The position numbers and the translations under genes are program-made. Below the pieces are notes generated by a model that was not told where the DNA came from, did no database searches, and saw only the letters and a list, made by a program, of their open reading frames with translations. A stretch of DNA of 64,000 nt from a virus (taxonomy: Duplodnaviria; Caudoviricetes): positions 34,497 to 98,496 of IMG/VR virus record IMGVR_UViG_3300042554_000410. One strand, given 5' to 3'. Positions 5,234-5,436 of the stretch are shown piece by piece (the first letter of the stretch is position 1; each line of letters begins with the position of its first letter).

Positions 5234-5271
5234 AAAAAGAAGAACCCCGAAACTTTTGGCTTCGGGGTTCT
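5234..5271 (-). terminator. Intrinsic terminator (candidate attenuator)
   Basis: 12-bp stem AGAACCCCGAAG/TTTCGGGGTTCT followed by TCTTTTT. Confidence 0.85.
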
Positions 5272-5296
5272 AAGAAACTAAGTCTATCCGTAAGAC

Positions 5297-5380
5297 TTAA
5301 AGCATAGAACCCCTCGCGTCTGCCCATGCTGGGCGACCTTCAAATTGATTATTCGTAATTGGGCAATAATGCGATTTCAT
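5297..5380 (-). CDS. 27-aa leader peptide MKSHYCPITNNQFEGRPAWADARGSML (candidate attenuator peptide)
   Basis: ATG..TAA read directly; 19 of 20 amino acids; codons 23-26 (GGGGTTCTA) are complementary to the terminator 5' arm; promoter immediately upstream. Confidence 0.72.
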   Translation of the reverse strand: MKSHYCPITNNQFEGRPAWADARGSML

Positions 5381-5405
5381 TTCCGTTCTTTCTAACTTTG
5401 TATTC

Positions 5406-5436
5406 TATTTATATCACAAGGAAGTCAATTTGTCAA
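5406..5436 (-). promoter_or_regulatory. Overlapping sigma70-type and T4 late promoter upstream of the leader ORF
   Basis: TTGACA-N17-TATAAA, with a TATAAATA late box at 5406-5413. Confidence 0.7.

Follow-up and report, generated by a model that had tools for sequence, protein, structure and literature searches.

A candidate ribosome-operated attenuator ahead of a tRNA gene block in uncultured T4-like phages

A stretch of about 200 nucleotides (nt) in the genome of an uncultured T4-like lake phage carries what we read as a transcription attenuator operated by ribosomes, placed to gate read-through into a block of phage tRNA genes. We put the probability of this reading at roughly 0.6, and under it the phage would probably make more of its own tRNAs when ribosomes translate slowly. 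The DNA analysed (the window) comprises 64,000 nt, positions 34,497 to 98,496 of IMG/VR record IMGVR_UViG_3300042554_000410, a 98.5-kb linear virus record that encodes a T4-type DNA polymerase, portal and major head protein. On its minus strand a strong promoter (P1) precedes a 27-codon leader open reading frame (ORF), the last codons of which are complementary to the 5' arm of a predicted intrinsic terminator further downstream. An earlier note on this DNA, made from the letters alone, had likened the arrangement to trp/his-type attenuation, and the likeness has held up, in that the same layout recurs in six diverged sequence groups of phage DNA with the reading frame and the placement of the stop codon kept and with covarying antiterminator pairs. 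Were the attenuator reading correct, large phages would meter tRNA production against actual ribosome performance rather than merely carry spare tRNAs, and would do so with a compact, portable sensor of translational capacity.

Layout of the element in the window

The coordinates claimed earlier for the promoter, ORF, antiterminator strand and terminator all check on the minus strand. The parts of the element and of its probable cargo are listed below in the order in which they would be transcribed, with positions numbered within the window.

5406-5436, minus strand: promoter P1, with a consensus -35 hexamer (5436-5431), a 17-nt spacer, a -10 hexamer (5413-5408) and a T4 late octamer (5413-5406)
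5381-5400, minus strand: short purine-rich 5' leader with a weak Shine-Dalgarno match; shows 1-2-nt indels in relatives, unlike the ORF
5297-5380, minus strand: leader ORF of 27 codons plus stop; homologous ORFs are present at every related locus
5318-5337, minus strand: hairpin inside the ORF at codons 15-21, with 5 + 3 pairs and one bulge, from folding and comparison
5305-5313, minus strand: strand A, the 5' strand of the antiterminator, within codons 23-26; exact complement of 5272-5264
5279-5299, minus strand: inner 7-bp hairpin H, nested in the antiterminator and containing the stop codon; 5299-5293 pairs with 5285-5279
5241-5272, minus strand: strand B (5272-5259), common to antiterminator and terminator, and the terminator hairpin (5271-5241) with its 3' arm C (5253-5241)
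5233-5240, minus strand: T-tract of the intrinsic terminator, kept in aligned relatives
5163-5191, minus strand: promoter P2, sigma-70-like, downstream of the terminator, with 10/12 matches and TG before the -10
4638-5110, minus strand: probable regulated cargo, consisting of a 22-nt motif found in 28 viral stretches, a structured non-coding stretch and tRNA-Asn

The terminator hairpin lies where it had been placed and is followed by its U-tract; its predicted stem has 13 pairs rather than the 12 bp first counted, one of them G-U and seven of them G-C, around a 5-nt loop. The 173-nt leader folds at -56.3 kcal/mol (z = -4.52), a value that none of 200 shuffled sequences equalled. When the window RNA is cut just before the terminator 3' arm it folds into the composite antiterminator, A:B pairing with H nested inside, at -23.5 kcal/mol, and the terminator alone is predicted at -21.6 kcal/mol. 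The hairpin within the ORF (5337-5318) may be an RNA polymerase pause site that synchronises polymerase and ribosome; one of its pairs changes from U-A to C-G between groups 1 and 2 of the relatives described below, and group 3 has a different hairpin in the same place.

The window carries 22 tRNA genes on the minus strand, and 8 more lie just beyond the window start (9 are listed there, 1 of them shared with the window). Five tRNA genes (6795-7715) lie upstream of the element, which therefore divides the tRNA region rather than heading the whole of it; the statement that the tRNA array follows the element is thus right for the downstream block and leaves out these five. Downstream, the phage record has 25 tRNA genes that together cover all 20 amino acids, the first of them tRNA-Asn at 4713-4638 on the minus strand.

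Conservation across six groups of relatives

A blastn search with 1,001 nt against 50,697 phage records gave no match, and the protein of the neighbouring oxygenase gene has only distant matches in cultured phages, at less than 60% identity. Relatives were drawn from IMG/VR and metagenomes by way of the neighbouring gene, the peptide, the inner hairpin, a conserved downstream motif and the pattern of the A, B and C arms. The same layout was found at 47 loci of uncultured phages, which fall into six sequence groups and encode 27 distinct leader peptides, and a covariance model built from ten loci gave 55 matches at E-values up to 1e-4 among 62 sources, duplicate loci included. Groups 1 and 2 can be aligned with the window, and groups 3-6 differ from it in peptides, leaders and inner hairpins. 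Groups 4-6 were found by the arm pattern, with no tRNA criterion. Three other matches to that pattern (L130, L132 and L133) were set aside; they have no leader ORF and look unrelated, L133 consisting of two tandem terminators.

Linkage to tRNA genes is consistent across this collection. At each of the 23 loci whose downstream sequence runs to at least 1,700 nt, the element is followed on its own strand by a tRNA gene at a distance of 177-1,619 nt, and one is already seen in 16 of the 24 shorter loci; an opposite-strand tRNA gene was found at none of the 47. The element sits between tRNA-Leu(CAA) and tRNA-Asn in groups 1 and 2. The stretches fetched for groups 3 and 4 contain no upstream tRNA genes, so that the element heads the array there. 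It is followed by a radical-SAM-like gene and 24 tRNAs in group 5, and it stands in group 6 between a phage transfer-messenger RNA (tmRNA) gene directly upstream and a downstream set of small genes and tRNAs.

An ORF of 25-41 codons is present in every variant, opening with ATG or, in group 3, with GTG. At all related loci its stop codon falls 11-16 nt after the first base of A, with TAA, TAG and TGA all in use, and this position is still held in group 3, where strand A is read in a different frame. Stops close both of the other frames in every one of 17 distinct ORF sequences. Four indel events were found in the ORF, all multiples of three, and 1-2-nt indels occur in the hairpin loops as they do in the 5' leader. 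In group 6 the three ORFs have 33 codons each and no indel, though few of their columns are invariant; more generally, peptide sequence varies freely from group to group and the switch persists. A reading frame, a length and an end point that are kept under weak peptide selection form the pattern of a cis-acting leader ORF and argue against a functional micro-protein, and from this pattern we infer that the leader ORF is translated.

The two mutually exclusive folds are recovered from the relatives as well. The composite antiterminator is the predicted fold of RNA truncated before C in 14/14, 19/19 and 8/8 variants, at -15.5 to -25.7 kcal/mol, and the terminators of the variants are predicted at -17.4 to -22.8 kcal/mol (-20.0 to -22.7 kcal/mol in the first set of 14). 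In a MAFFT alignment of 14 variants, 94.9% of cells pair as antiterminator, a level reached by 0 of 500 shuffles and compared with 18-53% in slid controls, and 95.5% pair as terminator. Among 18 distinct variants in a model-based alignment, which is fitted to the structure, 97.2% pair (slid controls, 21-59%) and 5 of 16 pairs change on both sides, a number reached by 2 of 500 shuffles. At the outermost A:B position, 11 variants have A-U, 5 have G-C and 1 has U-A; since this position is unpaired in the terminator, its change argues for A:B itself. At one locus (L099) an A:B pair changes from G-C to A-U with a matching change in C, so that all three strands are altered together, and at two others the G run of A and C is lengthened, B having gained a matching C in L092 and carrying U, for a G-U pair, in L119. 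The stem of H is invariant in groups 1 and 2 while its loop varies, and groups 3-6 have stems of other sequence; across groups, 3 of its 7 pairs change on both sides.

Transcript data touch the element at one point. An RNA-seq library yielded a single 341-nt contig on 5045-5383, which runs across the terminator and P2; given that DNA may be present in the library, this is a weak hint of read-through. The four sequencing runs examined are represented by Logan contigs, which cannot show RNA ends or levels and in which uncovered stretches carry no meaning. Contig ends at 5045 were considered as RNA ends and rejected, as they recur in a run that is probably DNA.

Proposed mechanism, alternatives and the sensed variable

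The mechanism that we propose would run as follows. Transcription from P1 would yield the short leader and the 27-codon ORF, and as RNA polymerase advances, A, in the last ORF codons, could pair with B, with nested H completing the composite antiterminator. A ribosome that has reached the stop codon would cover A and the 5' half of H, leaving B to pair with C, and transcription would end at the T-tract. A late or absent ribosome, or one stalled with its A site no further than about codon 19, would instead leave A:B to form first, and the polymerase would go on to transcribe the structured RNAs and the main block of tRNA genes. This would amount to negative feedback, with poor translational capacity giving more phage tRNA and good capacity less, and P2, where present, might provide a basal supply. 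We infer from sequence comparison each of the working parts of this scheme, namely translation of the ORF, activity of the terminator, the relative timing of ribosome and polymerase, the direction of the response and the variable that is sensed, which could be either how fast many different codons are decoded or just how many free ribosomes are available.

A number of observations weigh against this mechanism. Part of the conservation was imposed by the collection, in that loci first found by the arm pattern (all of groups 4-6 and part of group 3) had A, B and C from the outset, and the model-based alignment of 18 variants (A7) already contains the structure; the covariation comes from few independent events, at 2 of the 9 A:B pairs. 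At equilibrium the terminator-plus-hairpin state of the full window RNA is about 5 kcal/mol more stable, an advantage of the same order as in trp-type leaders. No convincing anti-antiterminator was found, and untranslated RNA of the element is therefore predicted to read through, unlike that of classical trp-type leaders. A 1:2 protector helix of this kind was tried and is unsupported; part of codons 4-7 pairs with A in the minimum-energy fold, yet these codons are unchanged in a variant that alters A. Variable sites of the ORF show no third-position excess over all variants (10, 11 and 12 of 22, 21 and 21), a bias hinted at by a first comparison with L003 having vanished in the full set, and the ratio of nonsynonymous to synonymous polymorphism (pN/pS) is only about 0.5-0.7. 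The weak Shine-Dalgarno match, a caveat of the earlier note, is confirmed and is far weaker than the strong sites 5-8 nt from the start codons of late genes in the same phage; the start codon is GTG in group 3, and group 6 is almost leaderless. Five tRNA genes stand upstream of the element. Finally, P2 lies behind the terminator in groups 1 and 2 and could bypass it, giving unregulated transcription of the tRNA block.

This last caveat, also raised earlier, stands for groups 1 and 2, in which P2 (5191-5163 in the window) is kept. P2 is absent from group 3, where the conserved downstream motif lies about 25 nt beyond the terminator; a promoter scan lists no plus-strand site up to 5100, before the tRNAs, under a rule that also misses P1, so that the scan is not proof. 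The apparent lack of a promoter between terminator and tRNAs removes the caveat for group 3, and the tRNAs of that group seem, from their sequence context, to depend on read-through.

Three other explanations were weighed against the same evidence. P1, the ORF and the terminator might constitute an autonomous micro-gene that makes a functional peptide of 25-41 residues, for example for host takeover, with A:B pairing incidental or serving to stabilise the 3' end of the mRNA. The element does have its own promoter and terminator, several residues are invariant within groups 1 and 2, pN/pS lies below 1, and T4-like phages carry many very small genes. Against this, the peptides are almost unrelated between groups (window and L113 have 7 identical residues), and the ORFs of group 6 have few invariant columns, yet the length of the ORF, the place of its stop and the switch all persist. 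Compensatory changes in a helix that excludes the terminator, and group-3 tRNAs downstream with no evident promoter of their own, likewise speak against a micro-gene, which we regard as unlikely. Equally unlikely, in our judgement, is a switch made of RNA alone, in which a protein, tRNA or small ligand binds the leader (as in T-box, PyrR or TRAP systems) and the open frame is a by-product. Such a switch would sit well with the alternative helices being the best conserved part, with the conserved position of the in-ORF hairpin and with the weak Shine-Dalgarno match, but the frame is open in all 27 distinct variants while the other frames are closed, indels come in threes, and the position of the stop codon is held even where the frame relative to A differs. 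Little structure or sequence upstream of A is conserved between groups, and a covariance search with Rfam 15 at E-values up to 1 over window positions 1-9000 gave no match between 4714 and 5436; the matches elsewhere in that range all fall on tRNA genes and come from tRNA-clan models and from sub-threshold hits of two other families. A T-box riboswitch in particular was rejected, there being no Rfam T-box match and just one short hairpin in the leader upstream of A.

The hairpin could also be a plain terminator or insulator for transcripts from P1, the upstream tRNAs and the two oxygenase genes, with the downstream tRNAs made from P2 and the copy of the 3' arm within the ORF arising by chance or as a remnant of duplication. 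P2 lies directly behind it in groups 1 and 2, and folding the full leader to minimum energy gives the terminator state. This explanation, which we rate as very unlikely, is at odds with the persistence of A:B across six groups, where both partners change at a position unpaired in the terminator, with group 3 having no P2, and with the conservation of an ORF that stops inside the antiterminator.

If the attenuator reading is adopted, the composition of the leader peptide bears on what the ribosome would be gauging. The window peptide uses 19 of the 20 amino acids (no Val) in 27 codons, 18 of them within the first 21. Among 14,553 windows of 27 residues taken from 50 long ORF products of the window, the mean is 13.79 distinct residues (standard deviation, 1.67) and 0.082% reach 19; independent draws from the proteome composition reach 19 distinct residues in 0.070% of cases. 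Among 110 ATG-started ORFs of 24-30 codons in the six frames, the leader ORF is the only one with at least 18 distinct residues. No residue is repeated more than three times, and this lack of a regulatory-codon run sets the element apart from classical operon leaders.

The set of leader peptides scored for diversity comprises 25, two others having been left out (L092, with 18 distinct residues of 27, and L119, with 18 of 26). All 25 lie above the null mean for their length, with a mean z of 2.06 and a range of 0.13 to 3.85. Against expectations of 27%, 22% and 40%, Trp, Cys and His occur in 92%, 92% and 88% of them respectively; Leu and Asp are scarcer than expected. Group-3 peptides have 7-8 residues in common with the window, yet contain 18-19 distinct residues, and when diversity is conditioned on the residues shared with the window it remains high for L113 (P = 0.0006) and L120 (P = 0.033) and is unremarkable for group-2 peptides (P = 0.19-0.37). 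Group medians combined by hand still show an excess of diversity, the groups being not fully independent.

Other results weigh against a reading that takes in every amino acid. The relatives range from 14 to 20 distinct residues, the L112 lineage has lost diversity (14 distinct residues against 16.7 expected), the position of Phe in the window is taken by Pro, Ser or Val in relatives, and part of the diversity lies in the last codons, which RNA structure fixes. When the count is confined to codons at which a stall would leave A free, the mean z drops to 1.18, a modest excess, and is above zero for 24 of the 25 peptides; for the window, these sensor codons specify 14 distinct residues of 16 (P = 0.016). 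A match between leader codons and downstream anticodons was tried and dropped as uninformative; the downstream tRNAs cover all 20 amino acids, and any peptide would match.

The alignment of leaders upstream of related tRNA arrays returns the conserved short ORF and covarying arms that the earlier note proposed to test for, with a diversity that is not uniformly maximal, and the proposed survey of the whole aminoacyl-tRNA pool is weakened by these counts. That the leader is a broad-spectrum gauge of this pool, with most amino acids, among them the rare Trp, Cys and His, represented by one codon each, is a tentative suggestion that we think somewhat improbable on present sequences; a pan-amino-acid response is possible, though the data do not require it. 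Under such a gauge, a shortage of almost any one tRNA, whether it arises from starvation, from host shut-off or from a defence nuclease that cleaves tRNAs, would halt the ribosome before A is masked and let transcription proceed into the complete set of tRNA genes that the phage carries, making for a self-correcting viral tRNA supply.

Known systems and the genomic neighbourhood

Leader-peptide attenuation is a textbook mechanism of amino-acid operons and some resistance genes, and the enterobacterial leader attenuators include trpL, hisL, pheL, thrL, leuL and the ilv leaders. Like trpL-type leaders, the element has a promoter-proximal short ORF that closes with a strand able to pair with the 5' arm of an intrinsic terminator, about 60 nt from stop codon to T-tract and a terminator more stable than the antiterminator. 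Unlike them, it has no run of codons for a single amino acid and an unusually mixed composition instead, no clear 1:2 protector helix, and a cargo of phage tRNA genes and structured RNAs in place of biosynthetic enzymes. Judged by its sequence, then, the element is a predicted trp-type geometry without the regulatory-codon run and with new cargo. Goldfarb and Daniel are said to have described, in 1980, a tRNA operon of phage T4 in two subclusters under separate transcriptional control, and we know of no leader ORF or attenuator for that operon. Our literature search found no account of leader-peptide attenuation controlling tRNA genes, in phages or in cells.

Several published systems share parts of the proposed logic. 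The pheL leader attenuator (PMC3082878) is an example of the classical type. In mycobacteria, stalling on the upstream ORF (uORF) of whiB7 is believed to cause antitermination; whiB7 is activated on loss of numerous genes that serve amino-acid biosynthesis or encode tRNAs and tRNA synthetases, and the uORF, whose coding sequence decides which starvation is sensed, varies between species (PMC10274678). The element would resemble it in antitermination by a stall on a uORF and in the breadth of inducing losses, and does resemble it in uORF sequence variation; it differs in that the whiB7 uORF is enriched in alanine and controls a transcription factor, whereas the phage leader has no dominant residue and its cargo is tRNA supply itself. 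The toiL uORF upstream of topAI in Escherichia coli is described as responding to ribosomes stalled at different positions (PMC12121999) and is similar as a single short ORF reporting general translation stress; it differs in that toiL exposes a ribosome-binding site and thereby blocks Rho-dependent termination, with no intrinsic terminator/antiterminator pair, and it controls a toxin-antitoxin system. The trn operon of Anabaena sp. PCC 7120, a long array of supernumerary tRNAs induced when translation is impaired (PMC8421152, PMC10272220), follows the same physiological logic as the one proposed here; it is controlled by a protein repressor, TrcR, with no leader ORF or RNA switch, and resides on a bacterial megaplasmid rather than in a phage. 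As for why phages keep tRNA arrays, the candidate explanations are codon compensation, host tRNA decay and escape from tRNA-targeting defences (see PMC10264068 and PMC11555353), and the attenuator reading, if true, would bear on that question.

P1 looks, from its sequence, like a combined early (sigma-70) and late (T4-type) promoter, its -10 hexamer being part of the eight-base T4 late-promoter box. This octamer occurs six times in the window, each time on the coding strand, a count that is in itself unremarkable (15 of 100 shuffles also reach six), so that the assignment of P1 as a late promoter follows from the placement of the octamers and not from their number. Besides P1, four copies sit 16-27 nt upstream of start codons, three of them adjoining head genes, and one copy (846-839) lies inside an ORF. 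The late box of P1 is kept in relatives and lies 25 nt from the leader start codon, as in true late genes. Group-3 loci have a second, near-identical promoter copy about 100 nt upstream of P1, and in L113 (3645-3770) an extra promoter copy is followed by merely a three-codon ORF.

Between the terminator and P2, at 5198-5229 on the minus strand, two short repeats are conserved in groups 1 and 2 together with a near-perfect palindrome and show a G-U-compatible change; the feature could be an operator for P2 or an additional hairpin. In many relatives P2 and the 22-nt motif are separated by a conserved ORF that is about 65 codons long and has a strong Shine-Dalgarno site (L003, 3927-4122; L092, 3251-3446; also L112, L115, L117 and L119), which the window does not have. 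The 22-nt motif itself (5110-5089, minus strand) is nearly letter-perfect across its 28 viral stretches. It was considered as a promoter and rejected, having a -35-like hexamer but no -10. It opens the structured non-coding stretch that extends to 4714, whose long stems and T-arm-like hairpin precede the first tRNA and in which there is no Rfam match; in L113 the motif and a tRNA-like RNA stand ahead of tRNA-Pro.

On the upstream side, the stop codon of a 2-oxoglutarate (2OG)-oxygenase-like gene (5438-6064, minus strand) directly adjoins the promoter of the element. It is one of two such genes (5438-6769) that occur in swapped order in L002 (3001-4286). The element of L002 is 100% identical to that of the window, yet the neighbouring oxygenase compared is only 67% identical, a contrast that points either to recent exchange of a tRNA-region module or to very strong constraint on its nucleotide sequence.

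Bacterial genomes yielded 11 matching stretches, of which the model designated R1 matched two at E-values up to 0.01 (L147, 33.2 bits; L143, 21.5 bits); five of the 11 were printed and scanned for ORFs, and none of these is convincingly a member. On one bacterial assembly contig (L146, 7060-7350), about 25 nt ahead of a tRNA-Tyr gene and three tRNA-Leu genes, there is a promoter with a 26-codon ORF and a terminator; the ORF has one codon for Tyr and seven for Leu, the latter of five kinds. Model R1 does not match this stretch, and a search for it in 60 other genomes of the family returned two matches, both weak and confined to the terminator part; it is a single case that looks like a codon-specific leader for tRNA genes. 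Among the phages, the tmRNA gene of group 6 was located in three stretches (L136, 4404-4787; L137, 1309-1672; L141, 2025-2407), which places the ribosome-rescue and tRNA genes of these phages in one cluster.

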